This document shows positions 6,793-29,778 of a stretch of 32,955 nucleotides of DNA, one piece after another; positions within the stretch are counted from its first letter, which is position 1; each line of letters opens with the position of its first letter. Where the stretch lies: IMG/VR virus record IMGVR_UViG_2617271086_000008, positions 1-32,955 of that record. One strand, 5' to 3'. Source of the DNA: a virus (taxonomy: Duplodnaviria; Heunggongvirae; Uroviricota; Caudoviricetes). The position numbers and the translations under genes were made by a program. The notes beneath the pieces were generated by a model that worked only from the letters and a program-made list of their open reading frames with translations, was not told where the DNA came from and searched no databases.

Positions 6793-7830
6793 ATGGCGGT
6801 AAAAGTTGTTGATCTTTTTTGTGGTGCTGGCGGGCTTACTCATGGCTTAAAGCAAGCCGGATTAGATGTAGTCGCTGGTATTGATATAGAGAGTGCATGC
6901 CGGGTTGCTTATGAAAGTAATAACAGTGCGCTTTTTATTGAAAAAGATATTTCTCTGGTGACCAAAGACGAGCTTAACGATCTTTTTGAAGGTGCGCAGG
7001 TCAGGGTGTTGGCTGGTTGTGCGCCGTGCCAACCTTTTTCAAGGTATACGCAAGGGCGCGATAAGAAAAATGATAAAAAGTGGCCTCTTCTTTATGAATT
7101 TGAACGTTTAATTCGAGGGGTTAATCCAGAGATCGTTACAATGGAAAATGTGCCTGATGTAACGAAGCATTCTGTTTATAGTGACTTCTATAATAGTTTA
7201 GAGGCATTGGGTTATCATGTCTGGGCCGGAAAGGTTGAATGTGTAGATTATGGTGTTCCGCAAAATAGAGTAAGGCATGTATTATTGGCATCTAAATTTG
7301 CGCCGCTTTCATTTGTAAAACCAAAAGTAGAAAAGGCGGTGACGGTAAAAGAATGCATTGGCGGACTTCCTCCATTAAAGGCAGGTCAAACGGATCCTGT
7401 TGATCCTTTACATAAAGCAAGTAAATTAAGTGATATAAATCTAAAACGTATTGCTTGCTCTAAACCAGGAGGGACATGGCGAGACTGGCCAGTAGAGTTG
7501 ATTGCATCATGCCACATAAAGAAAAGTGGGCAAGGTTATGCTAGTGTATACGGACGTATGGATTGGGATAAACCAAGTCCTACAATTACTACGCTATGTT
7601 ATGGTTTTGGAAATGGCAGATTTGGTCATCCAGAGCAAAATCGTGCAATTTCTCTGAGAGAGGCTGCATTGTTGCAAACGTTTCCAAAGGATTACGTTTT
7701 TACTGCACCCAATGAGAAAGTATCTATAAAGAATGTTGGTAGGATGATTGGTAATGCAGTACCGGTAAAACTAGGTGAGGTTATAGGTGAGTCAATTATA
7801 ACTCACCTAAAAGAGCACAATATAGTTTAA
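6793..7830 (+). CDS. DNA (cytosine-5)-methyltransferase
   Basis: Motif I DLFCGAGG, motif IV GCAPCQPFS (catalytic PCQ), motif VI ENV, motif VIII QNRVR, motif X GNAV; AT-rich relative to the phage backbone. Confidence 0.9.
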   Translation: MAVKVVDLFCGAGGLTHGLKQAGLDVVAGIDIESACRVAYESNNSALFIEKDISLVTKDELNDLFEGAQVRVLAGCAPCQPFSRYTQGRDKKNDKKWPLLYEFERLIRGVNPEIVTMENVPDVTKHSVYSDFYNSLEALGYHVWAGKVECVDYGVPQNRVRHVLLASKFAPLSFVKPKVEKAVTVKECIGGLPPLKAGQTDPVDPLHKASKLSDINLKRIACSKPGGTWRDWPVELIASCHIKKSGQGYASVYGRMDWDKPSPTITTLCYGFGNGRFGHPEQNRAISLREAALLQTFPKDYVFTAPNEKVSIKNVGRMIGNAVPVKLGEVIGESIITHLKEHNIV

Positions 7831-8558
7831 GCCTGTAGTCTTGATGATCGTATGTATAAGCGATCATCAAGGTATTTTTGTATGTTTTCTAGTATTTCTT
7901 CTAGGTAATGGAAAACTTCATTTTTAAGAAGTTCAAGGTTGTCAATAGACGTTTCTTGACCCTTGTTTAAAAAGGATTCTGAACCATGTGCCAATGCATT
8001 TCTTGCTTTTTTTATGTTTACTAAATTTCCACCATTATGAGTTTTTGAACGATCTGTTTGATAGGAAAAACCATAGATATTAGCAACATCCCTAATTTTC
8101 TGTGCGTCAACATTTCCCGAAAATAGGGGGTTTTTATCTGCTTGAACTTGTTTTTTGTGTTCCTCTAGCCATTTTTTTAGAACTAGTTTTGCTATATCAC
8201 CTTGTGAAAAATCCATGTCACTCACCATATGATGGTCTAATTTTTTTAAGGCAAGCTTTGTTAAACTTTCGCAAATCTTATCGACACAAAGATCATCGCA
8301 CGAATTAAGTTCATTATGTATGTCTTCAATAGCATTAGATATAGTGGCTTCAATTAAGTTATATAATATAATAAACGCATTGGCTTTAAGGATATGCGTC
8401 ATTTCGATATCGATTTCGCGGTGTTTACATTCGCCTGCTGTGCGATCTTTGTACGAGAAAGTTGGTCTCTCATCAATAATGAATTTAACAAAATTAAAAT
8501 ATTTTTCTATATCTTCTTTTCTTTCAGAAAATAAAATTTTGCTGTTCATAATGACCAC
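7827..8558 (-). CDS. HEPN-like protein (R-x4-HG motif), putative RNase/abortive-infection effector
   Basis: 243 aa; C-terminal motif KARNALAHG (R186-x4-H191-G); probable GTG start at 8558 with a GAGGAG RBS that overlaps the stop of the upstream DUF262 gene. Confidence 0.6.
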   Translation of the reverse strand: MVIMNSKILFSERKEDIEKYFNFVKFIIDERPTFSYKDRTAGECKHREIDIEMTHILKANAFIILYNLIEATISNAIEDIHNELNSCDDLCVDKICESLTKLALKKLDHHMVSDMDFSQGDIAKLVLKKWLEEHKKQVQADKNPLFSGNVDAQKIRDVANIYGFSYQTDRSKTHNGGNLVNIKKARNALAHGSESFLNKGQETSIDNLELLKNEVFHYLEEILENIQKYLDDRLYIRSSRLQA

Positions 8559-8564
8559 GGATAG

Positions 8565-9689
8565 TTACTCCTCACTATCATCTAGAACAGTATCTTCGGT
8601 CTGCACACCTAAAAGTTTGTCTCTTACATATTCAATACGTGCTTTTACTTTAGGTTTTGAGTTTGACGCATCAGATCTTGTATGTTTAATAAACTCTTCT
8701 GAGTTTAACCATTCCTCTACCGGTGTTGGTATTATGTTAGAGTTAGTTTTTAAGGCTAAAGTGGAACCGACAGCTAACGCTTCAAAGCGAATTCTTGGTA
8801 CAGTGTTTGCTGTTGCATTCTTTCTGAAACCATAGGGGAAATGTGTTTTGACAAATTCACACATATCTTGAAATTGTGCAGTTAGTTTTTCTTCTTGCTC
8901 AGGACTAAATGACTCATTTCGTTGGTCAAGATATTGGGTTAAGAAAGTATCAACACTTTTTTCAAAGTTAAGATAGTTATCACAATAGGCAAAATATCTA
9001 AGAACCAATTCTGGATATTCTCCACGACTGATTCTGGCATCGTTTAGAGGGCATATTTCCCTAAACAATGGAAACTCTGATAGTCTATTAACAACATCAA
9101 GAAAAGGCCCATCATTACTGCCCTGTCGTTGCTCCATTGTCGTGAGTTTTATTCCACCTGTATTCAATCGATCGAAAATCTCCCTTCTTGCTTCTTCATC
9201 ACATAATTCAGTGAGTTCAATCATTCGAATAGTTTTTCTATCGAATCTAAGCTTACGTGCAGGTGTGAAGTCAGAGTATTTGAATCCGTTGGCTGAAGTT
9301 AACTTTTTTAATCCAGTAAGGGTAAATTTATCATTTAGAAAATGATAAAGTGTTCTAATCCTCTGGCTACCATCAACGATTTCCAATCGCCCATCGTCAT
9401 TTCCGATATCGGCAACAAATACATATGGGATAGGAATATTTAGCAAAAGCGATTCAATGAATCTTGATTTTTGAACATTGCTCCAAACAAATTCCCTTTG
9501 ATAATCAGGTATGTATAGTTCTGCTTGGTCGGTTTCTAATCCTTTCTGAAATTTGTCAACAATGACACTTACAGGAAACTCTCTAATTTGGTGATCCGTT
9601 ATTTTTTGCATGGATTTGATCTGGTTATCCAGGTCAACTTTATCTTCTTCTGTGATCACTTGTTCAGGTTGTCTTGGGACTCTTGCCAT
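8565..9689 (-). CDS. DUF262 (ParB/GmrS-like NTPase) domain protein without HNH/DUF1524
   Basis: Motifs DYQREFVW, IVDGSQRIRT (DGQQR-like) and FDRLNTGGIKL; likely start ATG 9689 with an AAGGAG RBS (ORF extends to 9851). Confidence 0.75.
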   Translation of the reverse strand: MARVPRQPEQVITEEDKVDLDNQIKSMQKITDHQIREFPVSVIVDKFQKGLETDQAELYIPDYQREFVWSNVQKSRFIESLLLNIPIPYVFVADIGNDDGRLEIVDGSQRIRTLYHFLNDKFTLTGLKKLTSANGFKYSDFTPARKLRFDRKTIRMIELTELCDEEARREIFDRLNTGGIKLTTMEQRQGSNDGPFLDVVNRLSEFPLFREICPLNDARISRGEYPELVLRYFAYCDNYLNFEKSVDTFLTQYLDQRNESFSPEQEEKLTAQFQDMCEFVKTHFPYGFRKNATANTVPRIRFEALAVGSTLALKTNSNIIPTPVEEWLNSEEFIKHTRSDASNSKPKVKARIEYVRDKLLGVQTEDTVLDDSEE

Positions 9690-9992
9690 TTGTTTTCTCC
9701 TTATGCTTATTTGCAATAAGTTGCATTTGTTTGCATGCGTAGTTTTATACTGATTTAATCCCACAAGTCCTTTATATGCAAGGGTTAGAGGCTTAAATGC
9801 ACCTGCATTAAAACCGCCTTGTGAAGCGGGCAGGCGAGGCGGGGAAAGCACTGCGCGCTGGCGGTGGTGCTGATTTTATTTTTTCAGCGTCTCAGCGCGT
9901 CGTAATGGCGCTTAGTCTGCCCGTTGAGGCGTTGGTGTGTCTGCGGGGTGTTTTGTGCGGTGGTGAGCGTGTGAGGGCGTGATGACGGGGTG

Positions 9993-16827: not shown

Positions 16828-17324
16828 TGCCGGTAATTAACACGCATCAGAATATCGCCGCCTTTCTCGACATGCTGGCCGTGTCCGAAGGGACGGCAAA
16901 TCATCCGCTGACGAAAAACCGGGGCTATGACGTGATAGTCACCGGACTGGACGGGAAGCCGGAAATCTTCACCGACTACAGCGACCACCCGTTCGCGCAT
17001 GGCCGACCGGCGAAGGTGTTTAACCGTCGCGGTGAAAAATCCACGGCCTCCGGTCGCTATCAGCAGCTTTACCTGTTCTGGCCGCACTACCGCAAACAGC
17101 TTGCCCTGCCGGATTTCAGTCCGTTGTCACAGGACAGACTTGCCATTCAGTTGATCCGCGAACGCGGTGCACTGGATGACATCCGGGCGGGACGCATTGA
17201 GCGCGCCATTTCACGCTGTCGCAATATCTGGGCGTCCCTGCCGGGAGCCGGTTACGGTCAGCGTGAGCATTCACTGGAAAAACTGGTCACCGTCTGGCGT
17301 ACCGCTGGCGGCGTACCGGCTTAA
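16827..17324 (+). CDS. K: Endolysin (lysozyme)
   Basis: 165 aa, P2 gpK-like. Confidence 0.9.
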   Translation: MPVINTHQNIAAFLDMLAVSEGTANHPLTKNRGYDVIVTGLDGKPEIFTDYSDHPFAHGRPAKVFNRRGEKSTASGRYQQLYLFWPHYRKQLALPDFSPLSQDRLAIQLIRERGALDDIRAGRIERAISRCRNIWASLPGAGYGQREHSLEKLVTVWRTAGGVPA

Positions 17325-17338
17325 ACGGAGTAAACACC

Positions 17339-17764
17339 ATGAAGAAATTATCCCTTTCACTGATGCTGAACGTGTCGCTGGCGCTGATGCTGGCACTGTC
17401 CCTGATTTACCCGCAGAGCGTGGCCGTCAGTTTTGTCGCCACCTGGGCGATTCTGGCGACGGTTATCTGTGTGGTTGCCGGTGGTGTTGGTGTGTATGCC
17501 ACGGAGTATGTGCTGGAACGCTACGGACGGGAGCTGCCGCCGGAATCGCTGGCCGTGAAGATTGTCACGTCGCTGTTTTTGCAGCCGGTGCCGTGGCGCA
17601 GACGGGCGGCGGCTCTGGTAGTGATGGTGGCGACGTTTATCTCGCTGGTCGCTGCCGGGTGGATTTTTACCGCGTTGATTTATCTCGTGGCATCGGTGTT
17701 CTTCCGGCTGATACGTACGGCCTGCCGTCAGCGTTTTGAGGGGTGGGAATCATGTCAAAGCTGA
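17339..17764 (+). CDS. lysA: Lysis regulatory membrane protein LysA
   Basis: 141 aa, multi-transmembrane, P2 lysA position. Confidence 0.75.
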   Translation: MKKLSLSLMLNVSLALMLALSLIYPQSVAVSFVATWAILATVICVVAGGVGVYATEYVLERYGRELPPESLAVKIVTSLFLQPVPWRRRAAALVVMVATFISLVAAGWIFTALIYLVASVFFRLIRTACRQRFEGWESCQS

Positions 17765-18177
17765 TGATTGTGCTGGTTGTGTTGTTATCACTGGCGGTGG
17801 CCGGTCTGTTTCTGGTGAAACACAAAAATGCCAGCCTGCGCGCTTCGCTGGACAGGGCGAACAACGTCGCCAGTGAACAGCAGACGACCATCACCATGCT
17901 GAAAAATCAGCTTCATGTTGCGCTCACCAGGGCAGACAAAAACGAGCTGGCGCAGGTGGCACTGCGTCAGGAACTGGAGAACGCCGCGAAGCGTGAAGCA
18001 CAGCGCGAGAAAACCATCACGAGGTTACTGAATGAAAACGAGGATTTTCGCCGCTGGTATGGCGCTGACCTGCCTGATGCTGTGCGCCGGTTGCACCAGC
18101 GTCCGGCCTGCACTGACGCCAGTGATTGTCGCCAACGCCTGCCCGAAAGTGAGCCTTTGCCCGATGCCGGGCAGTGA
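17752..18177 (+). CDS. lysB: i-spanin (Rz-like) LysB
   Basis: Start ATG 17752 (MSKLMIVL) with a GAGGGGTGGG RBS; N-terminal transmembrane segment then coiled-coil. Confidence 0.8.
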   Translation: MSKLMIVLVVLLSLAVAGLFLVKHKNASLRASLDRANNVASEQQTTITMLKNQLHVALTRADKNELAQVALRQELENAAKREAQREKTITRLLNENEDFRRWYGADLPDAVRRLHQRPACTDASDCRQRLPESEPLPDAGQ

Positions 18178-18322
18178 CCCGCAGACGAACGGCGATTTAA
18201 GTGCCGATATCCGGCAGCTTGAGAACGCGCTGGCACGCTGTGCCAGCCAGGTAAAAATGATTAAACACTGTCAGGACGAAAACGATGCTCAAACCCGACA
18301 GCCTGCGCAGGGCGCTGACTGA
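18032..18322 (+). CDS. lysC: o-spanin (Rz1-like lipoprotein) LysC
   Basis: 96 aa in the +1 frame overlapping the lysB 3' half; lipobox LCAGC; Pro-rich. Confidence 0.75.
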   Translation: MKTRIFAAGMALTCLMLCAGCTSVRPALTPVIVANACPKVSLCPMPGSDPQTNGDLSADIRQLENALARCASQVKMIKHCQDENDAQTRQPAQGAD

Positions 18323-18752
18323 TGCCGTCACGGTGCTGAAAACTAACCCCGATATGCTGCGGATATTCGTGGATAACGGGAGTATTGCCTCCACGCTGGC
18401 GGCGTCGTTGTCATTCGAAAAGCGTTACACGCTCAATGTGATTGTGACCGACTTTACCGGTGATTTTGACCTGCTCATTGTGCCGGTGCTGGCGTGGCTG
18501 CGGGAAAATCAGCCCGACATCATGACCACCGACGCAGGCCAGAAAAAGGGCTTCACGTTTTATGCAGACATCAACAATGACAGCAGCTTTGATATCAGCA
18601 TCAGCCTGATGCTGACCGAGCGCACGCTGGTCAGTGAGGTTGACGGTGCGCTGCATGTGAAGAATATCCCGGAACCTCCGCCGCCGGAGCCGGTCACCCG
18701 CCCGATGGAGCTTTATATCAATGGCGAACTGGTGAGCAAGTGGGATGAATGA
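18285..18752 (+). CDS. R: Tail completion protein R
   Basis: 155 aa, P2 gpR size and position. Confidence 0.85.
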   Translation: MLKPDSLRRALTDAVTVLKTNPDMLRIFVDNGSIASTLAASLSFEKRYTLNVIVTDFTGDFDLLIVPVLAWLRENQPDIMTTDAGQKKGFTFYADINNDSSFDISISLMLTERTLVSEVDGALHVKNIPEPPPPEPVTRPMELYINGELVSKWDE

Positions 18753-19197
18753 GTTTAAGCGTTTTGAAGACCGGCTGACCGGACTTATTGAGTCGCTGTC
18801 ACCGTCAGGGCGTCGGCGACTGAGTGCCGAACTGGCGAAACGCCTGCGGCAGAGTCAGCAGCGTCGGGTGATGGCACAGAAAGCTCCGGACGGCACACCC
18901 TATGCGCCACGCCAGCAGCAGAGCGCCAGAAAAAAGACCGGTCGCGTTAAGCGAAAAATGTTTGCGAAACTTATCACCAGTCGTTTTTTGCATATCCGCG
19001 CCAGCCCTGAACAGGCATCAATGGAGTTTTACGGCGGGAAGTCACCGAAAATCGCCAGTGTGCATCAGTTTGGTCTGTCGGAAGAAACCCGGAAAGACGG
19101 TAAGAAAATTGATTATCCGGCGCGTCCTCTGCTCGGCTTTACCGGTGAGGATGTGCAGATGATTGAAGAGATTATCCTGGCTCACCTCGACCGTTAG
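18745..19197 (+). CDS. S: Tail completion protein S
   Basis: 150 aa, P2 gpS size and position. Confidence 0.85.
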   Translation: MNEFKRFEDRLTGLIESLSPSGRRRLSAELAKRLRQSQQRRVMAQKAPDGTPYAPRQQQSARKKTGRVKRKMFAKLITSRFLHIRASPEQASMEFYGGKSPKIASVHQFGLSEETRKDGKKIDYPARPLLGFTGEDVQMIEEIILAHLDR

Positions 19198-19263
19198 TTG
19201 TGCCATTCCCGACACCTCATCGTCACATTGCCGCCGGTATGACCCGGCGGCATCCTTCCCGTT

Positions 19264-19899
19264 ATGAACACTCTCGCAAATATTCAGGAACTCGCGCGCG
19301 CACTGCGCAACATGATTCGCACCGGCGTTATCGTCGAAACCGATCTTAACGCCGGTCGCTGCCGTGTGCAGACCGGCGGCATGTGTACCGACTGGCTGCA
19401 GTGGCTGACCCATCGCGCCGGGCGTTCGCGCACATGGTGGGCACCTTCCGTGGGGGAACAGGTGCTGATTCTGGCCGTGGGCGGTGAACTCGACACGGCG
19501 TTCGTTCTGCCGGGGATTTATTCCGGTGATAACCCCGCGCCGTCTGCGTCGGCGGATGCCCTGCATATCCGTTTCCCTGACGGGGCGGTGATTGAATATG
19601 AACCCGAAACCAGTGCACTCACGGTAAGCGGAATTAAAACGGCCAGCGTGACGGCTTCTGATTCTGTTACTGCCACGGTGCCGGTGGTCATGGTGAAAGC
19701 ATCAACCCGCATCACCCTGGACACACCGGAGGTGGTCTGCACCAACAGGCTGATTACCGGCACGCTGGAAGTGCAGAAGGGCGGGACGATGCGCGGCAAC
19801 ATTGAACACACCGGAGGTGAACTCTCATCAAACGGTAAGGTACTGCATACCCATAAACACCCCGGCGACAGCGGCGGCAAAACCGGGAGTCCTCTATGA
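19264..19899 (+). CDS. V: Baseplate spike protein V
   Basis: 211 aa, P2 gpV-like. Confidence 0.9.
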   Translation: MNTLANIQELARALRNMIRTGVIVETDLNAGRCRVQTGGMCTDWLQWLTHRAGRSRTWWAPSVGEQVLILAVGGELDTAFVLPGIYSGDNPAPSASADALHIRFPDGAVIEYEPETSALTVSGIKTASVTASDSVTATVPVVMVKASTRITLDTPEVVCTNRLITGTLEVQKGGTMRGNIEHTGGELSSNGKVLHTHKHPGDSGGKTGSPL

Positions 19900-20243
19900 C
19901 AGCGCGTTATCTCGGAATGAATCGCAGTGATGGCCTGACGGTCACTGACCTTGAGCATATCAGCCAGAGTATCGGCGATATCCTGCGCACACCGGTCGGC
20001 TCACGGGTGATGCGTCGTGATTACGGCTCGTTGCTGGCATCAATGATTGACCAGCCGCAGACCCCGGCGCTTGAGTTGCAGATTAAGGTCGCCTGTTACA
20101 TGGCGGTGCTGAAATGGGAACCCCGCGTCACCCTGTCATCCGTCATCACTGAGCGCAGTTTTGACGGGCGAATGACGGTCACGTTAACCGGCCAGCACAA
20201 CGACACCGGCCAGCCACTTTCGTTAACCATCCCTGTGAGTTGA
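19896..20243 (+). CDS. W: Baseplate protein W (gp25-like)
   Basis: 115 aa, P2 gpW-like. Confidence 0.9.
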   Translation: MTARYLGMNRSDGLTVTDLEHISQSIGDILRTPVGSRVMRRDYGSLLASMIDQPQTPALELQIKVACYMAVLKWEPRVTLSSVITERSFDGRMTVTLTGQHNDTGQPLSLTIPVS

Positions 20244-20247
20244 AACC

Positions 20248-21156
20248 ATGCCGATTATCGACCTGAACCAGCTACCCGCACCGGATGTGGTTGAGGAGCT
20301 GGACTTTGAAACCATTCTTGCAGAACGCAAGGCGACACTGATTTCCCTTTACCCGGAAGACCAGCAGGAGGCGGTCGCCCGTACCCTGACGCTGGAATCC
20401 GAGCCTCTCGTCAAACTGCTGGAGGAAAACGCTTATCGTGAGCTTATCTGGCGTCAGCGTGTGAATGAGGCCGCACGGGCGGTGATGCTGGCCTGTGCAG
20501 CCGATAATGACCTTGATGTGATTGGTGCCAATTACAACACCACGCGCCTGATTATCACCCCGGCAGATGATTCGACCATCCCGCCGACACCGGCAGTGAT
20601 GGAGTCTGACACCGATTATCGTCTGCGTATTCAGCAGGCGTTTGAGGGCTTAAGCGTCGCCGGGGCGGTGGGAGCCTATCAGTATCATGGTCGCAGTGCT
20701 GACGGGCGTGTCGCCGATATTTCTGTCACCAGTCCGTCTCCTGCCTGTGTCACCATCTCTGTGCTGTCACGTGAAAATAACGGCGTCGCATCCGAAGACC
20801 TGCTGGCTGTGGTGCGCAACGCCCTTAATGGCGAGGACGTCAGGCCGGTGGCCGACCGCGTGACCGTACAGTCTGCCGCCATCGTTGAATACCAGATAAA
20901 CGCCACGCTTTACCTTTACCCTGGTCCCGAAAGCGAACCCATCCGCGCTGCCGCCGTGAAAAAACTGGAAGCGTATATCACGGCACAGCACCGGCTGGGG
21001 CGTGACATCCGTCTGTCTGCCATTTATGCCGCTTTGCATGTGGAAGGCGTGCAGCGTGTCGAACTGGCTGCACCGCTGGCCGACATCGTGCTCAACAGTA
21101 CGCAGGCGTCTTTCTGTACCGAATACAGCGTCGTGACCGGAGGCTCGGATGAGTGA
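20248..21156 (+). CDS. J: Baseplate protein J
   Basis: 302 aa, P2 gpJ-like. Confidence 0.9.
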   Translation: MPIIDLNQLPAPDVVEELDFETILAERKATLISLYPEDQQEAVARTLTLESEPLVKLLEENAYRELIWRQRVNEAARAVMLACAADNDLDVIGANYNTTRLIITPADDSTIPPTPAVMESDTDYRLRIQQAFEGLSVAGAVGAYQYHGRSADGRVADISVTSPSPACVTISVLSRENNGVASEDLLAVVRNALNGEDVRPVADRVTVQSAAIVEYQINATLYLYPGPESEPIRAAAVKKLEAYITAQHRLGRDIRLSAIYAALHVEGVQRVELAAPLADIVLNSTQASFCTEYSVVTGGSDE

Positions 21157-21760
21157 TTCGCGACTGCTGCCGACTGGCTCATCACCGCTTGAAGTTGCCG
21201 CCGCAAAAGCCTGCGCGGAAATTGAAAAAACGCCGGTCAGTATTCGTGAGCTGTGGAACCCGGATACCTGCCCGGCAAATCTGCTGCCGTGGCTGGCGTG
21301 GTCATTTTCGGTTGACCGCTGGGATGATAAGTGGCCGGAAGCGACAAAACGCGCTGTTATCCGCGATGCGTATTTCATTCACTGTCATAAAGGCACTATA
21401 GGTGCAATCCGGCGTGTGGTGGAGCCGCTCGGCTATCTGATTGAGGTGAGGGAGTGGTGGCAGCTCAACGAGGAGCCGGGGACGTTCCGTATCGTTGTTG
21501 GCGTGCTTGAGCAGGGTATTACCGAAGAAATGTATCAGGAGCTGGAGCGCCTCGTTGCTGATGCAAAACCGGCGAGCCGCCATCTTACGGGACTGGCTAT
21601 CAGTTTAAGTACAACCGGCAACATTTTTGCCGGTGCGGGATGCTATCACGGTGACGCCCTGACGGTTTATCCCTACACCCCGGAGGCCATTATTGTCGGA
21701 GGGGATTATTTCCCGGCCTCGGCCATTCATTTAATTGATAACCTGAGAGTAAACGCATGA
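21149..21760 (+). CDS. I: Baseplate/tail protein I
   Basis: P2 gpI position; exact start uncertain (ORF gives 203 aa). Confidence 0.8.
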   Translation: MSDSRLLPTGSSPLEVAAAKACAEIEKTPVSIRELWNPDTCPANLLPWLAWSFSVDRWDDKWPEATKRAVIRDAYFIHCHKGTIGAIRRVVEPLGYLIEVREWWQLNEEPGTFRIVVGVLEQGITEEMYQELERLVADAKPASRHLTGLAISLSTTGNIFAGAGCYHGDALTVYPYTPEAIIVGGDYFPASAIHLIDNLRVNA

Positions 21761-23052
21761 CAGTGAAATACTACGCCATTCTGACTAATCAGGGCGCAGC
21801 ACGGCTGGCTAACGCGACGATGCTCGGCAGTAAGCTGAATCTGACGCAAATGGCCGTTGGTGATGCGAATGGTGTCTTGCCGACACCAGACCCGGCACAG
21901 ACAAAACTGATTAACCAGAAACGCATCGCGCCGCTGAATCTTCTGAGTGTTGACCCGAACAACCAGAGCCAGATTATTGCGGAGCAAATCATCCCTGAGA
22001 ACGAGGGCGGATTCTGGATCCGTGAGATTGGGCTTTATGATGATGAAGGCGTACTCATTGCGGTGGCGAACTGCCCGGAAACGTACAAACCGCAGTTGCA
22101 GGAAGGCAGTGGTCGTACCCAGACTATCCGCATGATTCTTGTTGTCACGAATACCGAAGCTATCACGCTGAAAATCGACCCGTCGGTGGTACTGGCGACC
22201 CGTAAATACGTGGATGATGAAGTCCTGGAATTAAGGCTGTATGTGGATGACCAGATGAGAAACCACATTGCCGCACAGGATCCTCATACCCAGTATGCGC
22301 AGAAACATAATCCGACATTTACCGGAGAACCAAAAGCGCCGACGCCTGCCGCAGGAAATAACACCACGCGGATTGCGACCACTGCGTTTGTACAGGCCGC
22401 TATTACCGCTCTGATTAACGGTGCGCCTGACACGCTGGACACACTGAAAGAAATTGCCGCGGCCATTAACAATGACCCGAAATTCAGCACCACCATTAAC
22501 AATGCGCTGTCAGGTAAGCAGCCACTGGATGAGACGCTGACTCATTTGAGTGGAAAGGATGTTGCCGGTCTTCTCGCATACCTTGGTTTGGGAGAAACGA
22601 TAAATAAAGCCTCCGGAGCTATGCAGAAATCGGCTAATGGATCTGATATTTCTGATGTATCAGCCTTCCGAAATGCGCTCCAGTTAGGGACCGCTGCAAC
22701 ACGAGATGTTGGAGCAGATAATGCCTCGAAGTTACTGGATTTAGACAGCTTCAGGTCAATGATGTCAGGTAATGGCTACATCTACATTCCATGCATTGCG
22801 ACGACAGGAAACCCGGTGAAACTTATGTTGCAGTGGGGAACGGTGGCAACACAAAAGGGAGCTGATGCTGGATATGCCTTACCATTTGCTTTTCCCTATG
22901 CAGGCTTGTTTGCGACCGGAAACCGTGGAACATCTGGCTACAATGCCGCGATGAATGTGCGTATTGCCAGCAGAACGCATATCAGTATTCAGAACTGGTC
23001 GCCATCCGGAGAGGGCACCGAAGATTGTTGTTTTATCGCGCTGGGGTATTAA
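21757..23052 (+). CDS. H: Tail fibre protein H (constant N-terminus plus currently expressed variable C-terminus)
   Basis: 431 aa; the constant/variable junction at the LGLGE codons coincides with the inversion crossover site. Confidence 0.85.
   Translation: MTVKYYAILTNQGAARLANATMLGSKLNLTQMAVGDANGVLPTPDPAQTKLINQKRIAPLNLLSVDPNNQSQIIAEQIIPENEGGFWIREIGLYDDEGVLIAVANCPETYKPQLQEGSGRTQTIRMILVVTNTEAITLKIDPSVVLATRKYVDDEVLELRLYVDDQMRNHIAAQDPHTQYAQKHNPTFTGEPKAPTPAAGNNTTRIATTAFVQAAITALINGAPDTLDTLKEIAAAINNDPKFSTTINNALSGKQPLDETLTHLSGKDVAGLLAYLGLGETINKASGAMQKSANGSDISDVSAFRNALQLGTAATRDVGADNASKLLDLDSFRSMMSGNGYIYIPCIATTGNPVKLMLQWGTVATQKGADAGYALPFAFPYAGLFATGNRGTSGYNAAMNVRIASRTHISIQNWSPSGEGTEDCCFIALGY
22571..22596. 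repeat. Invertase crossover site (left), inside gene H
   Basis: TTCTCGCATACC-TT-GGTTTGGGAGAA; the 14-bp core ttggtttgggagaa (22583-22596) is the exact reverse complement of 24480-24493. Confidence 0.7.
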
Positions 23053-23054
23053 GA

Positions 23055-23471
23055 ATGAATAAATTTTATAAAGGCTCTTTCTATCCGGAAGCACTAAAAG
23101 AGGTATATATCAGCGCCGGTTCATGGCCTGAAAATGGCGTTGATGTTGATGATGAAACAATGGCAATTTACACAGGCGTAGCGCCACAAGGCAAAACGCT
23201 GGGGGCTGATAAAAATGGTAATCCTGCGTGGATTGATATCCCGCCACTCTCCGCTGAACAACAGATTATTCAGGCTGAACAGAAAAGAACGGTATTGCGT
23301 TCTATGGCTGATAAGGAAATAGTCTGGAGACAGGATGCTTTTGATGCGGAAATCGCGACGGCAGAAGAAACCGCCGCGTTATCTGAATGGAAAAAATACC
23401 GGGTCTTGCTGATGCGCGTTGATACATCAAATCCCGTCTGGCCTACGCCTCCGGGGGAGCAGGCCAATTGA
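23055..23471 (+). CDS. G: Tail fibre assembly protein (current orientation)
   Basis: ATG 23055 immediately after the H stop; 138 aa. Confidence 0.75.
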   Translation: MNKFYKGSFYPEALKEVYISAGSWPENGVDVDDETMAIYTGVAPQGKTLGADKNGNPAWIDIPPLSAEQQIIQAEQKRTVLRSMADKEIVWRQDAFDAEIATAEETAALSEWKKYRVLLMRVDTSNPVWPTPPGEQAN

Positions 23472-24036
23472 TATCCGGCGCGGTGCTGGTATCTGTTGCC
23501 GTCACCGCGTCAATGTAATCCAGCACAGCGTTAAGCCGGGTTGTTTCTGCCTGCGTCAGTTTCCGCCCGGCCTGTAATTTCAGCTGAATCAGACTAATGG
23601 AAGCCATTGCAGCATCAATCAGCGACTGGCGCTGTGCTTCTGCCGCGTCTACTGCGGCGCTATGCTGTGCCTCGGTATCCGTCACCCATTTCTCACCATC
23701 CCATTTATCGTATGGCGTTAACGGTGAAAGCGTGACATAACCGTCTTTGATGGCACCGATATAATCCACTGTAACAGCTGCACCATTTTCTGTTGAGTAA
23801 ACAGTCTCATTGCGATGGTCTTCTTCATGGATCCATCCCTTACCCGTAAATACTGCCACTTTTCCAGGAATGTTTTCGCCCGGGTCAATACCAGTGGAAC
23901 AGGCGGGCATACTTACACCAGTATTAATATATTCATCAGACCAGCCCGTATATTCATACGTTACTTCATCATAATAAAAACAACGCATATCACCCGGCAC
24001 TGTAGCCAGTCCATTTTCATCAAAAACAGGTTTCAT
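23443..24036 (-). CDS. Alternative tail fibre assembly protein (inverted cassette)
   Basis: 197-aa minus-strand ORF inside the invertible segment; 3' end overlaps G convergently. Confidence 0.7.
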   Translation of the reverse strand: MKPVFDENGLATVPGDMRCFYYDEVTYEYTGWSDEYINTGVSMPACSTGIDPGENIPGKVAVFTGKGWIHEEDHRNETVYSTENGAAVTVDYIGAIKDGYVTLSPLTPYDKWDGEKWVTDTEAQHSAAVDAAEAQRQSLIDAAMASISLIQLKLQAGRKLTQAETTRLNAVLDYIDAVTATDTSTAPDINWPAPPEA

Positions 24037-24493
24037 TATTTAGCCCTCACCAGAAAGTTAAATGCGATGTTACGTGGTCTGACGGCAATAAAATTCACAC
24101 CATCACCCACTGAATTACTGGTGTAATGGTATCGAGAGAAACCCGGCTCGTGTGCTGATATTCCATCGTGATTAGCAATCGAATGGCCGGAGCCCTCTGG
24201 ATAATTACCGCCAAATTGCGATAAAGATGTTGCTGCCTGCCAGCTTAATAATGCTCGTCCACTGTCCGCCCCTCGCCCATCATCCCAGATACGAATGAAA
24301 TCACCGCGGGCTTCAGGCAATACCAGCGAAGGAAACACTTTCGCCAGCACAGGGTAATCAGTGGCAGAGAATTTCGCGCCGTTGAACTTCAAAAACACCA
24401 TGCTGGACCAGCTGTCGATTACGGTATCTGGCATTGCGGCGGACGGCCAGAAGAACGGAACGCCAATAGCTGGAACACCTTCTCCCAAACCAA
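24036..24493 (-). other. Promoterless alternative tail-fibre C-terminal cassette (Hv')
   Basis: Minus-strand ORF whose 5' end encodes GLGE at the right crossover site; inversion would fuse it in frame to the H constant region. Confidence 0.7.
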
Positions 24494-24505
24494 CGTTTAA
24501 GAAAA
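24480..24505. repeat. Invertase crossover site (right)
   Basis: TTCTCCCAAACC-AA-CGTTTAAGAAAA; imperfect palindrome of the Hin/Gin half-site type, inverted relative to 22571-22596. Confidence 0.7.
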
Positions 24506-24560
24506 TGCAGAGATTACGGCTAACTGGCATCATCCCCGGTTTTTATTCAGGGGATCCATC

Positions 24561-25154
24561 ATGCTTATTGGCTATGTCCGCGTGTCAACAAATGACCAGA
24601 ATACGGAATTGCAGCGTAACGCGCTGGAGTGCGCAGGATGTGAGCTGATTTTTGAGGATAAAATCAGCGGCACGAAGTCCGACCGACCGGGACTGAAAAA
24701 ACTGCTCAGGACATTATCGGAGGGGGATACACTGGTGGTCTGGAAGCTGGACCGGCTGGGGCGTAGTATGCGGCATCTGGTCATTCTGGTTGAGGAACTG
24801 CGCGAACGCGGCGTTAATTTTCGCAGCCTGACAGATGCTATTGATACCAGCACGCCGATGGGGCGTTTTTTCTTTCATGTGATGGGTGCCCTGGCTGAAA
24901 TGGAGCGAGAACTCATTGTCGAGCGGACACGCGCCGGACTGGAAGCGGCCAGAGCCAAAGGTCGTATTGGTGGCAGACGACCGAAACTCACCGCGAGTGA
25001 GTGGGAGCAGGTCGGACGGTTGCTGGCTGCGGGGGAATCTCGTCAACGTGTAGCGCTGATTTTTGATATTGGCCTGTCCACGCTCTATAAAAAATTCCCC
25101 TCATCAGCGACAAAGAATAAATTGTGTCATCCCTTAGCCAACCGGGACAAATAG
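24561..25154 (+). CDS. Serine DNA invertase (Pin/Gin/Cin/Hin family)
   Basis: N-terminus MLIGYVRVSTNDQ with catalytic Ser; resolvase core (VWKLDRLGRS) and C-terminal HTH; very similar to e14 Pin as recalled. Confidence 0.9.
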   Translation: MLIGYVRVSTNDQNTELQRNALECAGCELIFEDKISGTKSDRPGLKKLLRTLSEGDTLVVWKLDRLGRSMRHLVILVEELRERGVNFRSLTDAIDTSTPMGRFFFHVMGALAEMERELIVERTRAGLEAARAKGRIGGRRPKLTASEWEQVGRLLAAGESRQRVALIFDIGLSTLYKKFPSSATKNKLCHPLANRDK

Positions 25155-25213
25155 CCTGACATCTCCGGCGCAACTGAAAATACCACTCACCCATTAACCA
25201 CGGAGTTAAACGG

Positions 25214-26404
25214 ATGAGTGACTATCATCACGGCGTGCAGGTGCTGGAGATTAACGACGGCACCCGCGTCATTTCCACCGTATCCACCGCCATTGTCGGC
25301 ATGGTCTGCACGGCCAGCGATGCGGATGTGGAAACCTTCCCCCTCAATAAACCTGTGCTGATTACCAATGTGCAGAGCGCAATTGCAAAGGCCGGTAAAA
25401 AAGGCACGCTGGCGGCATCGTTGCAGGCTATCGCCGACCAGTCAAAACCGGTCACCGTTGTCGTGCGTGTGGAAGACGGCACCGGCGACGACGAGGAAAC
25501 GAAACTCGCGCAGACCGTTTCCAATATCATCGGCACCACCGACGAAAACGGTCAGTACACCGGACTGAAAGCCCTGCTGGCGGCGGAGTCGGTAACTGGT
25601 GTTAAACCGCGTATTCTCGGCGTGCCGGGACTGGACACCAAAGAGGTGGCTGTTGCACTGGCATCAGTCTGTCAGAAGCTGCGCGCTTTCGGGTATATCA
25701 GCGCATGGGGCTGTAAAACTATTTCCGAGGTGAAAGCCTACCGCCAGAATTTCAGCCAGCGTGAGCTGATGGTCATCTGGCCGGATTTCCTCGCATGGGA
25801 TACGGTCGCCAGTACCACCGCCAACGCGTATGCCACCGCCCGTGCGCTGGGTCTGCGCGCTAAAATCGACCAGGAGCAGGGCTGGCATAAAACGCTGTCC
25901 AACGTCGGGGTAAACGGTGTTACCGGTATCAGCGCGTCCGTATTCTGGGATTTGCAGGAGTCCGGTACCGATGCTGACCTGCTTAACGAGTCTGGCGTCA
26001 CAACGCTGATTCGCCGCGACGGTTTCCGCTTCTGGGGTAACCGTACCTGCTCTGATGACCCGCTGTTCCTCTTTGAAAACTACACCCGCACCGCGCAGGT
26101 GCTGGCCGACACGATGGCTGAGGCGCACATGTGGGCAGTGGACAAGCCCATCACCGCAACGCTGATTCGCGACATCGTTGACGGCATCAATGCCAAATTC
26201 CGTGAGCTGAAAACAAACGGCTATATCGTGGATGCGACCTGCTGGTTCAGCGAAGAATCCAACGATGCGGAAACCCTCAAGGCCGGAAAACTGTATATCG
26301 ACTACGACTATACCCCGGTGCCTCCTCTCGAAAACCTGACCCTGCGCCAGCGTATTACCGATAAATACCTGGCAAATCTGGTCACCTCGGTTAACAGCAA
26401 TTAA
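25214..26404 (+). CDS. FI: Tail sheath protein
   Basis: 396 aa, P2 gpFI-like. Confidence 0.9.
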   Translation: MSDYHHGVQVLEINDGTRVISTVSTAIVGMVCTASDADVETFPLNKPVLITNVQSAIAKAGKKGTLAASLQAIADQSKPVTVVVRVEDGTGDDEETKLAQTVSNIIGTTDENGQYTGLKALLAAESVTGVKPRILGVPGLDTKEVAVALASVCQKLRAFGYISAWGCKTISEVKAYRQNFSQRELMVIWPDFLAWDTVASTTANAYATARALGLRAKIDQEQGWHKTLSNVGVNGVTGISASVFWDLQESGTDADLLNESGVTTLIRRDGFRFWGNRTCSDDPLFLFENYTRTAQVLADTMAEAHMWAVDKPITATLIRDIVDGINAKFRELKTNGYIVDATCWFSEESNDAETLKAGKLYIDYDYTPVPPLENLTLRQRITDKYLANLVTSVNSN

Positions 26405-26416
26405 GGAGCCTGACCG

Positions 26417-26935
26417 ATGGCAATGCCGCGCAAACTCAAGTTAATGAACGTCTTTCTGAACGGCTACAGCTATCAGGGCGTTGCAAAGTCCGTCACGCTG
26501 CCAAAACTGACCCGTAAGCTCGAAAACTATCGCGGTGCGGGGATGAACGGCAGCGCACCGGTAGACCTCGGCCTTGATGACGATGCGCTGTCAATGGAGT
26601 GGTCGCTCGGGGGCTTCCCGGATTCGGTTATCTGGGAGCTTTACGCCGCAACCGGTGTGGATGCCGTGCCGATTCGTTTTGCAGGCTCTTACCAGCGCGA
26701 CGATACCGGCGAAACGGTGGCCGTCGAGGTGGTCATGCGTGGACGTCAGAAAGAAATCGACACCGGCGAGGGGAAACAGGGAGAAGACACCGAGTCGAAA
26801 ATCTCCGTGGTCTGCACCTATTTCCGGCTGACGATGGACGGTAAGGAGCTGGTCGAAATCGACACCATCAACATGATTGAGAAGGTGAACGGCGTCGACC
26901 GGCTGGAGCAACACCGCCGCAATATCGGCCTGTGA
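26417..26935 (+). CDS. FII: Tail tube protein
   Basis: 172 aa, P2 gpFII-like. Confidence 0.9.
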   Translation: MAMPRKLKLMNVFLNGYSYQGVAKSVTLPKLTRKLENYRGAGMNGSAPVDLGLDDDALSMEWSLGGFPDSVIWELYAATGVDAVPIRFAGSYQRDDTGETVAVEVVMRGRQKEIDTGEGKQGEDTESKISVVCTYFRLTMDGKELVEIDTINMIEKVNGVDRLEQHRRNIGL

Positions 26936-26991
26936 TTTTCATCCGGTCAGCCAGGCTGACCGGTTAACCCCGATTCAGAAGTGAGAAAACC

Positions 26992-27267
26992 ATGAACAAA
27001 GAAAATGTCATTACCCTGGACAATCCGGTCAAACGTGGTGAGCAGGTTATCGAACAGGTCACGCTGATGAAACCTAACGCCGGGACGCTGCGCGGTGTCA
27101 GTCTGGCTGCGGTTGCAAACTCCGAAGTCGATGCACTGATTAAAGTGCTGCCGCGCATGACGGCACCGATGCTGACCGAGCAGGAAGTCGCCGCGCTGGA
27201 ACTGCCTGACCTTGTGGCGCTGGCCGGTAAGGTGGTCGGTTTTTTGTCGCCGAACTCGGTGCAGTGA
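26992..27267 (+). CDS. E: Tail assembly chaperone E
   Basis: 91 aa, located between the tube gene and the tape measure gene. Confidence 0.85.
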   Translation: MNKENVITLDNPVKRGEQVIEQVTLMKPNAGTLRGVSLAAVANSEVDALIKVLPRMTAPMLTEQEVAALELPDLVALAGKVVGFLSPNSVQ

Positions 27268-27419
27268 CGTTCCCGAAAAATCTCTCGGTCGATGACCTGA
27301 TGGCGGATGTGGCAGTGATATTTCACTGGCCGCCATCAGAACTGTATCCCATGAGCCTGACCGAACTCATCACATGGCGCGAAAAGGCGCTCCGGCGAAG
27401 CGGAAACACGAATGAGTAA
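26992..27419 (+). CDS. E': E+E' fusion produced by programmed -1 frameshift
   Basis: Slippery heptamer T_TTT_TTG at 27240-27246; the -1 frame stays open from 27246 to the TAA at 27417-27419, which overlaps the T start codon. Confidence 0.65.
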
Positions 27420-29778
27420 CAATGTAAAATTACAGGTATTGCTCAGGGCTGTTGACCAGGCATCCCGCCCGTTTAAATCCATCCGCACAGCGAGTAAGTC
27501 GCTGTCGGGGGATATCCGGGAAACACAAAAATCACTGCGCGAGCTGAACGGTCAGGCATCCCGTATTGAGGGATTTCGCAAGACCAGTGCACAGCTCGCC
27601 GTGACTGGTCATGCACTTGAAAAGGCTCGGCAGGAAGCCGAAGCCCTTGCCACGCAGTTTAAAAACACCGAACGTCCGACCCGTGCTCAGGCGAAAGTGC
27701 TGGAATCCGCAAAGCGTGCGGCGGAGGACTTACAGGCGAAATATAACCGCCTGACGGATTCCGTTAAACGCCAGCAGCGGGAACTGGCCGCTGTGGGAAT
27801 TAATACCCGCAATCTTGCACATGATGAGCAGGGGCTGAAAAACCGTATCAGTGAAACCACCGCACAGCTTAACCGTCAGCGCGACGCACTGGCGCGTGTC
27901 AGTGCACAACAGGCAAAACTTAACGCAGTAAAACAGCGTTATCAGGCCGGAAAGGAACTGGCAGGAAATATGGCCTCAGTGGGCGCTGCCGGTGTGGGGA
28001 TTGCTGCTGCGGGAACGATGGCCGGTGTTAAGCTGCTGATGCCCGGTTATGAGTTTGCGCAGAAAAACTCAGAATTGCAGGCTGTGCTCGGTGTGGCAAA
28101 AGACTCCGCCGAAATGGCCGCATTACGCAAACAGGCGCGCCAGCTCGGCGACAATACCGCCGCCTCGGCAGATGATGCAGCCGGTGCGCAGATTATTATT
28201 GCGAAAGCCGGTGGGGATGTTGATGCCATTCAGGCGGCAACGCCGGTCACGCTGAACATGGCGCTGGCGAACCGCCGCACGATGGAAGAAAACGCCGCCC
28301 TGCTGATGGGGATGAAATCCGCCTTTCAGCTTTCAAACGATAAGGTCGCTCATATCGGGGATGTTCTCTCCATGACGATGAACAAAACCGCCGCCGATTT
28401 TGACGGCATGAGCGATGCGCTGACCTATGCCGCACCTGTGGCAAAAAATGCCGGTGTCAGCATTGAAGAAACCGCCGCAATGGTCGGGGCGCTGCATGAT
28501 GCAAAAATTACAGGCTCAATGGCGGGGACGGGAAGCCGTGCCGTGTTAAGTCGCCTGCAGGCACCAACGGGAAAAGCATGGGATGCACTCAAAGAGCTTG
28601 GCGTGAAAACCTCAGACAGCAAGGGAAACACCCGGCCAATATTTACCATTCTGAAAGAAATGCAGGCCAGTTTTGAGAAAAACCGGCTCGGTACTGCCCA
28701 GCAGGCTGAATACATGAAAACTATTTTCGGGGAGGAGGCCAGCTCAGCCGCCGCCGTGCTGATGACTGCCGCCTCAACCGGAAAGCTGGACAAACTGACC
28801 GCTGCGTTTAAAGCCTCAGACGGGAAGACTGCCGAGCTGGTAAATATCATGCAGGACAACCTCGGCGGTGACTTTAAGGAGTTTCAGTCCGCTTATGAGG
28901 CGGTAGGGACAGACCTGTTTGACCAGCAGGAAGGCGCACTGCGTAAGCTCACACAGACGGCCACAAAGTATGTGTTAAAACTCGACGGCTGGATACAGAA
29001 AAACAAATCACTGGCGTCAACCATTGGCATCATTGCCGGTGGCGCGCTGGCGCTTATTGGCATCATCGGTGCCATTGGTCTTGTAGCCTGGCCGGTTATC
29101 ACTGGCATCAATGCCATCATCGCGGCAGCAGGCGCAATGGGGGCAATCTTCACGACGGTTGGCAGTGCTGTTATGACGGCCATCGGGGCGATTAGCTGGC
29201 CGGTTGTGGCCGTGGTGGCCGCCATTGTCGCCGGGGCGTTGCTTATCCGTAAATACTGGGAGCCTGTCAGCGCATTCTTTGGCGGTGTGGTGGAAGGGCT
29301 GAAAGCGGCATTTGCGCCGGTGGGGGAACTGTTCACGCCACTTAAACCGGTGTTTGACTGGCTGGGTGAAAAGTTACAGGCCGCGTGGCAGTGGTTTAAA
29401 AACCTGATTGCCCCGGTTAAAGCCACACAGGACACCCTGAACCGTTGCCGTGACACGGGCGTCATGTTCGGGCAGGCACTGGCTGACGCGTTGATGCTGC
29501 CGCTTAATGCGTTCAACAAACTGCGCAGTGGTATTGACTGGGTACTGGAAAAACTCGGTGTTATCAACAAAGAGTCAGACACACTTGACCAGACCGCCGC
29601 AAGGACTAATGCCGCCACGTATGGCACCGGTGGTTATATTCCGGCGACCAGCTCTTATGCAGGCTATCAGGCTTATCAGCCGGTCACGGCACCGGCTGGC
29701 CGCTCTTATGTAGACCAGAGTAAAAACGAATATCACATCAGCCTGACGGGGTGGTACTGCGCCGGGGACACAGCTTGA
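27412..29778 (+). CDS. T: Tail tape measure protein
   Basis: 788 aa, Ala/Gly-rich with hydrophobic segments; P2 gpT position. Confidence 0.9.
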   Translation: MSNNVKLQVLLRAVDQASRPFKSIRTASKSLSGDIRETQKSLRELNGQASRIEGFRKTSAQLAVTGHALEKARQEAEALATQFKNTERPTRAQAKVLESAKRAAEDLQAKYNRLTDSVKRQQRELAAVGINTRNLAHDEQGLKNRISETTAQLNRQRDALARVSAQQAKLNAVKQRYQAGKELAGNMASVGAAGVGIAAAGTMAGVKLLMPGYEFAQKNSELQAVLGVAKDSAEMAALRKQARQLGDNTAASADDAAGAQIIIAKAGGDVDAIQAATPVTLNMALANRRTMEENAALLMGMKSAFQLSNDKVAHIGDVLSMTMNKTAADFDGMSDALTYAAPVAKNAGVSIEETAAMVGALHDAKITGSMAGTGSRAVLSRLQAPTGKAWDALKELGVKTSDSKGNTRPIFTILKEMQASFEKNRLGTAQQAEYMKTIFGEEASSAAAVLMTAASTGKLDKLTAAFKASDGKTAELVNIMQDNLGGDFKEFQSAYEAVGTDLFDQQEGALRKLTQTATKYVLKLDGWIQKNKSLASTIGIIAGGALALIGIIGAIGLVAWPVITGINAIIAAAGAMGAIFTTVGSAVMTAIGAISWPVVAVVAAIVAGALLIRKYWEPVSAFFGGVVEGLKAAFAPVGELFTPLKPVFDWLGEKLQAAWQWFKNLIAPVKATQDTLNRCRDTGVMFGQALADALMLPLNAFNKLRSGIDWVLEKLGVINKESDTLDQTAARTNAATYGTGGYIPATSSYAGYQAYQPVTAPAGRSYVDQSKNEYHISLTGWYCAGDTA

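Follow-up and report, generated by a model that had tools for sequence, protein, structure and literature searches.

Our analysis indicated that two 26-bp sequences in the 32,955-nucleotide stretch of viral DNA examined here (hereafter the window) are very probably recombined by a serine invertase of the Din family (Pin/Gin/Cin/Hin type), forming the sites of a switch that acts on gene H, the tail-fibre gene of a P2-like E. coli prophage. The switch is an ordinary Din-family tail-fibre inversion system and apparently functional.

The two crossover sites

The left site (pix-type; 22571-22596, TTCTCGCATACC TT GGTTTGGGAGAA) lies within gene H and the right site lies at 24480-24505 (TTCTCCCAAACC AA CGTTTAAGAAAA), with 1883 nt between the two arms, which are complementary at 21 of 26 positions (81%). 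Embedded in them is an exact 14-bp inverted core: 22583-22596 (TTGGTTTGGGAGAA), made up of the central TT and the inner 12-bp half-site, is the perfect reverse complement of 24480-24493 (TTCTCCCAAACCAA), as claimed in a preliminary description of this DNA. Each 26-mer was also described there as an imperfect palindrome with a central AA/TT, and indeed the half-sites are symmetric at 10 of 12 positions on the left and at 8 of 12 on the right. The centres are non-palindromic (TT on the left and AA on the right in the plus strand) and read AA in both sites when each is taken in its own polarity. In this family, inverted sites that share the same asymmetric central dinucleotide lead to inversion, not deletion. 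From the curated boundaries of P1 cix and of the Mu G segment, we infer that the crossover dinucleotide is 22583-22584 (TT) in the left site and 24492-24493 (AA) in the right site. Both sites fall inside coding sequence, at the GLGE codons noticed earlier in H and in its alternative segment: H encodes L-G-L-G-E across 22582-22596, and on the minus strand the ORF over the right site encodes ..NVGLGE...

What makes the pair significant is how well it fits the 26-bp Din-site consensus TTCTCNNAAACCAAGGTTTNNGAGAA, not the 14-bp identity. Exact 14-mer inverted repeats gave 12 matches in the window, forming 7 distinct pairs (at least 14 bp), against ~3.3 expected in Markov-shuffled sequence, and such a repeat alone was dropped as a statistical signal. 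Likewise, a search of the window with the half-site TTCTCCCAAACC alone at up to 2 mismatches returned 4 matches against 2.5 expected. The full consensus differs from the left site (minus strand) at 1 position and from the right site at 2, and at up to 3 mismatches it matched only these two sites in the 33-kb window and nothing in 100 shuffles. These data show the architecture typical of the family, namely two 26-bp sites with imperfectly symmetric 12-bp half-sites, a 2-bp centre and a consensus match. A third site, sought as a sign of a multi-inversion shufflon/Min-like system (cf. the 3-repeat EPEC locus), was absent from the window at up to 5 mismatches to the consensus.

The sites were further aligned beside the pix, gix and cix sites taken from the e14, Mu and P1 records, a check that the preliminary description had proposed. 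The inner half and centre are identical to those of both e14 pix sites, the 14-bp core TTGGTTTGGGAGAA being shared in full, and the right site matches the e14 site adjoining pinE at 25 of 26 positions.

The adjoining invertase and its putative enhancer

The right site is followed, after 56 bp, by a gene for a Din-family serine DNA invertase (24561-25154, plus strand). The 197-aa product carries the catalytic Ser9 and matches Pfam Resolvase (E = 1.9e-52) and HTH_7 (E = 5.4e-13), which is the plan of this family, whose small serine recombinases join an N-terminal resolvase catalytic domain, with the nucleophilic serine at about residue 9-10, to a helix-turn-helix domain at the C terminus. It aligned with the Gin structure PDB 3uj3 over residues 1-182 (E = 6e-94) and is 85% identical to PinE of e14, 85% to the Fels-2 invertase, 78% to Cin and 76% to Gin of Mu. 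Pin, Gin, Cin and the Fels-2 invertase agree at Ser9 and at 114 other alignment columns, and the window's invertase keeps all of these residues.

A putative recombinational enhancer lies inside the 5' end of this gene (24579-24650), at the position equivalent to the annotated P1 cin enhancer (gene +19 to +90). Two Fis-consensus motifs, at 24583-24597 (TGTCAACAAATGACC) and 24631-24645 (GCGCAGGATGTGAGC), have centres 48 bp apart, although the motif used is degenerate and occurs 6.8 times per kb in the window. The pair sits at gene positions +30/+78, within the span of the curated P1 enhancer, and is kept in all 5 invertase genes compared. Moreover, synonymous-site conservation is higher in the enhancer region (0.57 vs 0.41; permutation p = 0.012). 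The centre of the proximal motif lies 97.5 bp from the centre of the right site, and the hixL-enhancer spacing in the Hin system is ~100 bp (PMC3798978). At the level of sequence, these features are consistent with a cis enhancer of two Fis sites ~48 bp apart.

The sites could be genuine Din sites and yet be flipped mainly or only in trans by other invertases, such as PinE of e14, a Mu-type Gin or PinQ/PinR, with the adjacent invertase weak or inactive. The identity of the 14-bp core with the e14 pix sites is in keeping with this. In published work (PMC12529663), Din invertases are reported to act at one another's sites, and the e14 P segment to be inverted by three different Pin proteins. In addition, a simple scan of 24300-25300 found no clear sigma-70-like promoter upstream of the invertase gene, and the protein has an unusual C-terminal tail of ~13 residues that is absent from Pin. 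Against these points, the invertase ORF is intact with every residue invariant among its relatives, the enhancer-like motifs are kept in cis, and the invertase gene and the site stay together as a module in many prophages. We consider it improbable that the adjacent invertase plays little or no part, and favour a switch served by its own invertase.

The tail-fibre cassette and its natural inversions

The constant part of gene H (Hc; 21757-22596, plus strand, 280 codons, ending ..AYLGLGE) matches the N-terminal domain Phage_tail_fib of Pfam (E = 1.5e-62), and its frame was checked. It is followed by the variable C-terminal segment Hv (22597-23052, plus strand, 151 codons; Pfam Gp53-like_C, E = 1.3e-08), which is in the expressed orientation in the window, so that Hc and Hv form one continuous ORF (21757-23052). 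The tail-fibre assembly chaperone gene cognate to Hv follows at 23055-23471 on the plus strand (Pfam Caudo_TAP, E = 1.4e-31), its start being set by the PGAP annotation of the homologue in a related locus (L003). On the minus strand lie an alternative chaperone gene, tfa' (23443-24036; Caudo_TAP, E = 2.3e-28), and its cognate segment Hv' (24036-24479, 147 codons), which is silent as oriented and gave no domain match in the Pfam search. The region 23439-23724, which covers part of tfa', is 93% identical in DNA to e14 tfaE. An ATG at 24533 opens the Hv' ORF and is almost certainly not a real start, the ORF being a promoterless 3' gene segment.

When the segment was flipped in silico, Hv' joined Hc in frame. 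The H protein is intact in both orientations, with 431 aa in the window and 427 aa after the flip, and the 427-aa product is identical to the intact ORF of a naturally flipped locus (L001). With Mu S/S', P1 S/S' and e14 stfP/stfE as yardstick, the locus has the layout of a fibre-switching cassette, in which a constant 5' part lies outside and two opposed promoterless 3' parts, each with its own chaperone, make in-frame fusions.

Natural inversions of this segment were found in related prophages. Over 10.6 kb (window 17283-27883), locus L001 of strain 1002W03 is 99.98-100% identical to the window and only this segment is inverted. The plus-strand matches stop at 22596 and resume at 24480, the inverted match begins at 22583, and the plus-strand and inverted alignments overlap only in the 14-bp core. 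A second pair of loci, L002 and L003, has flanks that are 100% identical and cassettes in opposite orientations, and in both comparisons the segment inverts with its junctions within the sites. Among complete E. coli genomes, where a place was counted if it covered 80% or more of the query, the native left junction occurs in 78 and the flipped junction in 46, and the in-silico flipped junction matched a real genome at 601 of 601 positions. As read from these alignments, the inversion breakpoints are confined to the 14-bp core, whose 14 identical bases set the limit to which the comparison can place the cut.

With exchange placed only somewhere within those 14 identical bases, the inversions between genomes could also be read as RecA-dependent homologous recombination at short inverted repeats, not as site-specific events. 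Efficient RecA recombination in E. coli requires a minimal substrate of ~20-30 bp, and 14 bp is well under this. A longer perfect inverted repeat of 17 bp in the window (22184-22200 / 25804-25820) has no associated inversion in related loci; it was also rejected as a recombination site of its own, having no consensus match and lacking its second copy in L002 and L003. Moreover, the 14-bp repeats fit a recombinase-site consensus and an invertase gene adjoins them, and we regard a RecA origin as extremely improbable.

Experiments on other elements point to the same bases. The phase-variation coordinates reported for EPEC E2348/69, 2977580-2979467 (PMC4272514 Table S1), coincide exactly with the outer boundaries of the same 14-bp cores, and the e14 inversion was mapped experimentally to the same repeat, TTGGTTTGGGAGAAGG (PMC12529663). 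Recombination junctions elsewhere, named in the preliminary description as evidence that would tell against its assignment, were thus not what was found. A chance or coding coincidence without recombination function, to which the commonness of 14-mer inverted repeats and the GLGE motif encoded by both fibre segments might point, is refuted by the natural flips exactly at these sites and by the experimental EPEC coordinates, in line with the absence of the 26-bp consensus from shuffled sequence and with the use of the identical sequence as an inversion site in e14. The earlier identification of the pair as Hin/Gin-like serine invertase sites is borne out by the consensus fit, the adjoining invertase, the natural flips and an H gene that stays in frame both ways.

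In the Din-family switch that we favour, dimers of the invertase would bind the two inverted sites and bring them into synapsis on an enhancer that is bound by Fis and lies within the 5' part of the invertase gene. Both sites would be cut at the central TT/AA (22583-84 and 24492-93), rotated by 180 degrees and religated. The cassette of ~1.9 kb would flip, exchanging the 151 C-terminal codons of H (Hv) for 147 different ones (Hv') and placing the matching assembly-chaperone gene downstream of H. The phage would in this way alternate between two receptor-binding tips and, with them, two host ranges. We infer the exact cleavage position, the Fis dependence and the host-range consequence from the invertase family, whose members depend on Fis and on DNA supercoiling and make a staggered 2-nt cut at the central dinucleotide through a 5'-phosphoserine linkage.

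Relation to known switches and implications

One of the closest parallels is the P segment/PinE system of e14 in E. coli K-12, where the fibre constant part, variable part, chaperone, inverted chaperone, inverted variable part and invertase follow in the same arrangement, in addition to the shared core, the related invertase and the similar part of the alternative chaperone gene described above. However, e14 is a defective lambdoid element, in contrast to the intact P2-like myovirus prophage of the window, which carries gene H. The variable fibre segments of the two are unrelated in DNA, 1797 bp separate the e14 repeats against 1883 bp in the window, and in the window's left site the outer half is of the P2 H type (GGTATGCGAGAA), close to the Fels-2 sequence (GGTATGTGAGAA).

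The P2 prophage locus of EPEC E2348/69 (Goldberg et al. 2014, PMC4272514) is alike in its right site (26 of 26 positions), in the same 14-bp core on both sides and in an invertase gene in the same place, upstream of the tail sheath gene, and its inversion was observed experimentally. It differs in being a truncated remnant without the constant part of H, with an invertase 76% identical and flanks ~76% identical in DNA. The Mu G segment with Gin (gix) and the P1 C segment with Cin (cix) share the 26-bp sites with 12-bp half-sites, a crossover at the central dinucleotide that is curated in both records, an enhancer at the 5' end of gin or cin, where the Fis-motif pair again lies at +30/+78, and tail-fibre C-termini that alternate along with their cognate chaperones; their invertases are 76-78% identical to that of the window. 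Mu differs in its central GA/TC and 34-bp repeats, and P1 in having cin on the other side of the segment and far longer repeats. Salmonella Fels-2 (Fin) is, like the window's element, a P2-like prophage with the gene order H-cassette-invertase-sheath and has an invertase 85% identical, but differs in the core of its sites (TTCGCCTAAACCGA) and in their central GA/TC.

For Salmonella Hin/hix, the comparison is based on the literature and on background knowledge. The hixL and hixR sites share 14 bp of identity. The 26-bp site architecture and the site-enhancer spacing of ~100 bp (PMC3798978) resemble those of the window, whereas Hin flips a promoter and the window's switch flips the 3' end of a gene.

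Since e14 pix and sites in other P2- and Mu-type prophages of E. coli have exactly this core, the switch may not be private to its phage. Flipping in trans by the invertases of co-resident prophages, recombination between sites of different prophages and action of the flipped fibre at the level of the host are unlikely extensions, which we raise only tentatively. If true, recombination between prophages could yield large chromosomal inversions or deletions, and the flipped fibre could keep other phages from adsorbing, an effect recently claimed for StfE2, the e14 chimera.

Such switches are already documented in P2-like E. coli prophages, as are their mechanism and site sequence, and the main value of the finding lies in annotation; no new biological question is opened. 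The switch accounts for the labelling of the fibre gene, in one of its orientations, as a pseudogene or even an 'integrase' fragment by automated pipelines, and for a 1.9-kb inversion between otherwise identical prophages. It also predicts that lysates of the prophage would hold two particle types with different receptor specificity, a prediction that bears on host-range prediction and on phage and tailocin engineering.

The tail-fibre region of the prophage

The window is a complete P2-like prophage carrying an integrase gene (1-1014), replication gene A (3476-5803), and baseplate and tail genes, with a host cation-efflux gene at its right end. A cluster of defence-type cargo genes (6793-9851), which looks like a P2-type anti-phage hotspot, lies between gene A and the portal gene and encodes a C-5 cytosine DNA methylase (6793-7830, plus strand; PF00145; PADLOC MTase_II/DrmMII, E = 6e-94), a HEPN-domain protein (7827-8558, minus strand; PF18737) and a GmrSD_N/NsnA-like protein (8565-9851, minus strand; PADLOC NsnA, E = 3e-55).

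In the tail region, gene I (21149-21760) is followed by the tail-fibre gene H (21757-23052), whose product has the N-terminal domain of phage tail-collar fibre (E = 1.5e-62), and by a tail-fibre assembly chaperone gene (23055-23471). The longest ORF of this plus-strand chaperone starts from a TTG at 23025, inside H, and the annotated homologue begins at the ATG at 23055. On the opposite strand are a second, alternative tail-fibre assembly chaperone gene (23443-24036) and a promoterless fibre 3' segment, Hv prime (24036-24479), followed by the genes for a 197-aa serine recombinase with Resolvase and HTH_7 domains (24561-25154) and for the tail sheath (25214-26404). The Hv prime stop codon shares one base with the start codon of the alternative chaperone gene (ATGA; 24036, minus strand), which suggests that the two are translationally coupled after inversion. 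In addition, the DNA of part of the alternative chaperone gene (23439-23724) is 92-93% identical to tfaE of e14 in K-12 (L004 3514-3799) and to the chaperone gene of the P2 prophage remnant of EPEC E2348/69 (L008 5901-6186), whereas the neighbouring fibre segments are unrelated. This pattern indicates that cassette modules are exchanged mosaically between lambdoid and P2-like elements.

Crossover sites and their relatives

The exact 14-bp inverted core reported in the preliminary description was confirmed: 22583-22596 (TTGGTTTGGGAGAA) is the perfect reverse complement of 24480-24493. With a repeat finder, the pair reached 26-nt arms (22571-22596 and 24480-24505; 81% complementary, 1883 nt between), and no inverted pair in the 7-kb region searched was longer. 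As also described, both 26-mers are imperfectly palindromic with a central TT (left) or AA (right), and both lie within coding sequence. Their 12-bp halves are symmetric at 10/12 positions in the left site and 8/12 in the right; the left site covers H codons 272-280 (..LLAYLGLGE) and the right site ..NVGLGE.. of the inverted segment. The 14 identical bases comprise the central dinucleotide and the half-site facing the segment interior, and the outer halves agree at 7/12 positions. The 14-bp identity on its own is statistically unremarkable: exact 14-mer inverted hits number 12 in the window (7 distinct pairs), and ~3.3 would be expected in shuffled sequence. The full Din-family site consensus TTCTCNNAAACCAAGGTTTNNGAGAA, allowing ≤3 mismatches, matched only the left and right sites in the window and gave 0 matches in 100 shuffles; no third Din-family site was found in the window at ≤5 mismatches.

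Equivalent 26-mers were taken from the records of e14 (K-12), Mu, P1 and Fels-2. The left site, read inwards, is TTCTCCCAAACC AA GGTATGCGAGAA and its e14 equivalent is TTCTCCCAAACC AA GGTTTTCGAGAG, while the right site is TTCTCCCAAACC AA CGTTTAAGAAAA and its e14 equivalent, 25/26 identical, is TTCTCCCAAACC AA CGTTTATGAAAA. The core is identical to that of the e14 pix sites, and the AA centre is shared with the P1 cix sites, in contrast to the GA centre of the Mu gix and Fels-2 sites. The central dinucleotide of these 26-mers is where the P1 record places its curated cixL/cixR crossover points and the Mu record its G-segment boundaries. By homology, the cuts in the window should be at 22583-84 and 24492-93; the comparative data place the exchange no finer than the 14 identical bases.

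A perfect 17-bp inverted repeat (CGGTGGTACTGGCGACC) was also observed between the constant part of H (22184-22200) and the tail sheath gene (25804-25820), with ~0.03 expected in a window of such size. It was rejected as an inversion site because the sheath copy is absent from the loci of strains 32-4 and WCHEC005784 and there is neither a consensus match nor an associated inversion, and it is probably due to chance.

Natural inversion and its breakpoints

We flipped 22583-24493 in silico and searched 5,426 complete E. coli genomes with a 601-nt query across the new left junction. The flipped junction was present in strain 1002W03 (601/601 identity) and strain 32-4 (99.8%), and the native junction in strain WCHEC005784 (99.8%). 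At a query coverage of at least 80%, 78 genomes had a place matching the native junction and 46 had one matching the flipped junction. Aligned directly to the window, 1002W03 is co-linear with 17283-22596 (1 mismatch in 5314 bases) and 24480-27883 (0 in 3404), and matches 22583-24496 in reverse orientation (1 in 1914). Since the co-linear and inverted alignments share only the 14-bp core, the exchange points are bounded by the core. Strains 32-4 and WCHEC005784 carry opposite orientations between flanks that are 100% identical, so these flips are recent. The flipped H is an intact ORF of 427 aa in which Hc (280 aa) is joined to Hv prime (147 aa); 1002W03 carries the identical ORF. Native H has 431 aa.

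Inversion of the e14 P segment between 5'-TTGGTTTGGGAGAAGG-3' repeats has been demonstrated experimentally (PMC12529663), and this repeat opens with the 14 bases of the window core. Moreover, Goldberg et al. 2014 detected phase variation in P2 prophages of EPEC E2348/69 by deep sequencing (PMC4272514), and their Table S1 lists one locus at 2977580-2979467 (PMC4272514). That locus has a right site identical to the window's at 26/26 positions and a left site with the same 14-bp core, and the published coordinates are the exact outer edges of its two cores. The refuting condition set in the preliminary description, recombination junctions mapped elsewhere, thus comes out in favour of its reading of the sites as Hin/Gin-like, which is correct.

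Invertase, mechanism and annotation

The window invertase shares 85% identity with both PinE and the Fels-2 invertase, 78% with Cin and 76% with Gin; it conserves Ser9 and matches the Gin crystal-structure sequence with E = 6e-94. Its C-terminal tail of ~13 residues (..ATKNKLCHPLANRDK; 25116-25154) is missing from PinE, Cin and the Fels-2 invertase. The Cin enhancer is annotated in the P1 record at gene positions +19 to +90. Across five invertase genes, the first (5') 100 nt are highly conserved in DNA, and the Hübner-Arber Fis consensus (KNNYRNNWNNYRNNM) is centred at +30 and +78 in all five, exactly 48 bp apart, its matches in the window being the putative Fis motifs at 24583-24597 and 24631-24645. 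Synonymous codon identity, at amino-acid-invariant codons, is 0.57 in the putative enhancer stretch versus 0.41 elsewhere in the gene (permutation p = 0.012), as would fit an overlapping constraint at the DNA level. The centre of the proximal Fis motif lies 97.5 bp from that of the right site.

The best explanation, and a very probable one, is the standard reaction of a Din-family invertasome, in which H would exchange its C-terminal receptor-binding part along with the cognate chaperone. Other resident invertases acting in trans may add to the flipping but are unlikely to be its only source. RecA recombination between the 14-bp repeats could also be imagined as the cause, but the repeat is too short for it, and the longer 17-bp perfect repeat nearby has no inversion associated. 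Coincidence is refuted by the confinement of Din-family consensus matches to both sites with none in shuffled sequence, by the natural inversion in 1002W03 with breakpoints in the core, and by the EPEC E2348/69 phase-variation coordinates at the same cores. The window locus is a real and apparently active tail-fibre inversion switch, of a kind that is already well described and not novel.

The inversion switch gives rise to RefSeq/PGAP artefacts at H and Hv prime. In the flipped orientation (4475-5758 of both L001, in 1002W03, and L002, in 32-4), the intact 427-aa H ORF is called two 'incomplete' pseudogene pieces, and in the native orientation (L003 6754-7215, in WCHEC005784), the silent Hv prime is called an 'integrase' pseudogene. 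Since PGAP splits the one and mislabels the other, recognising the switch helps annotation.
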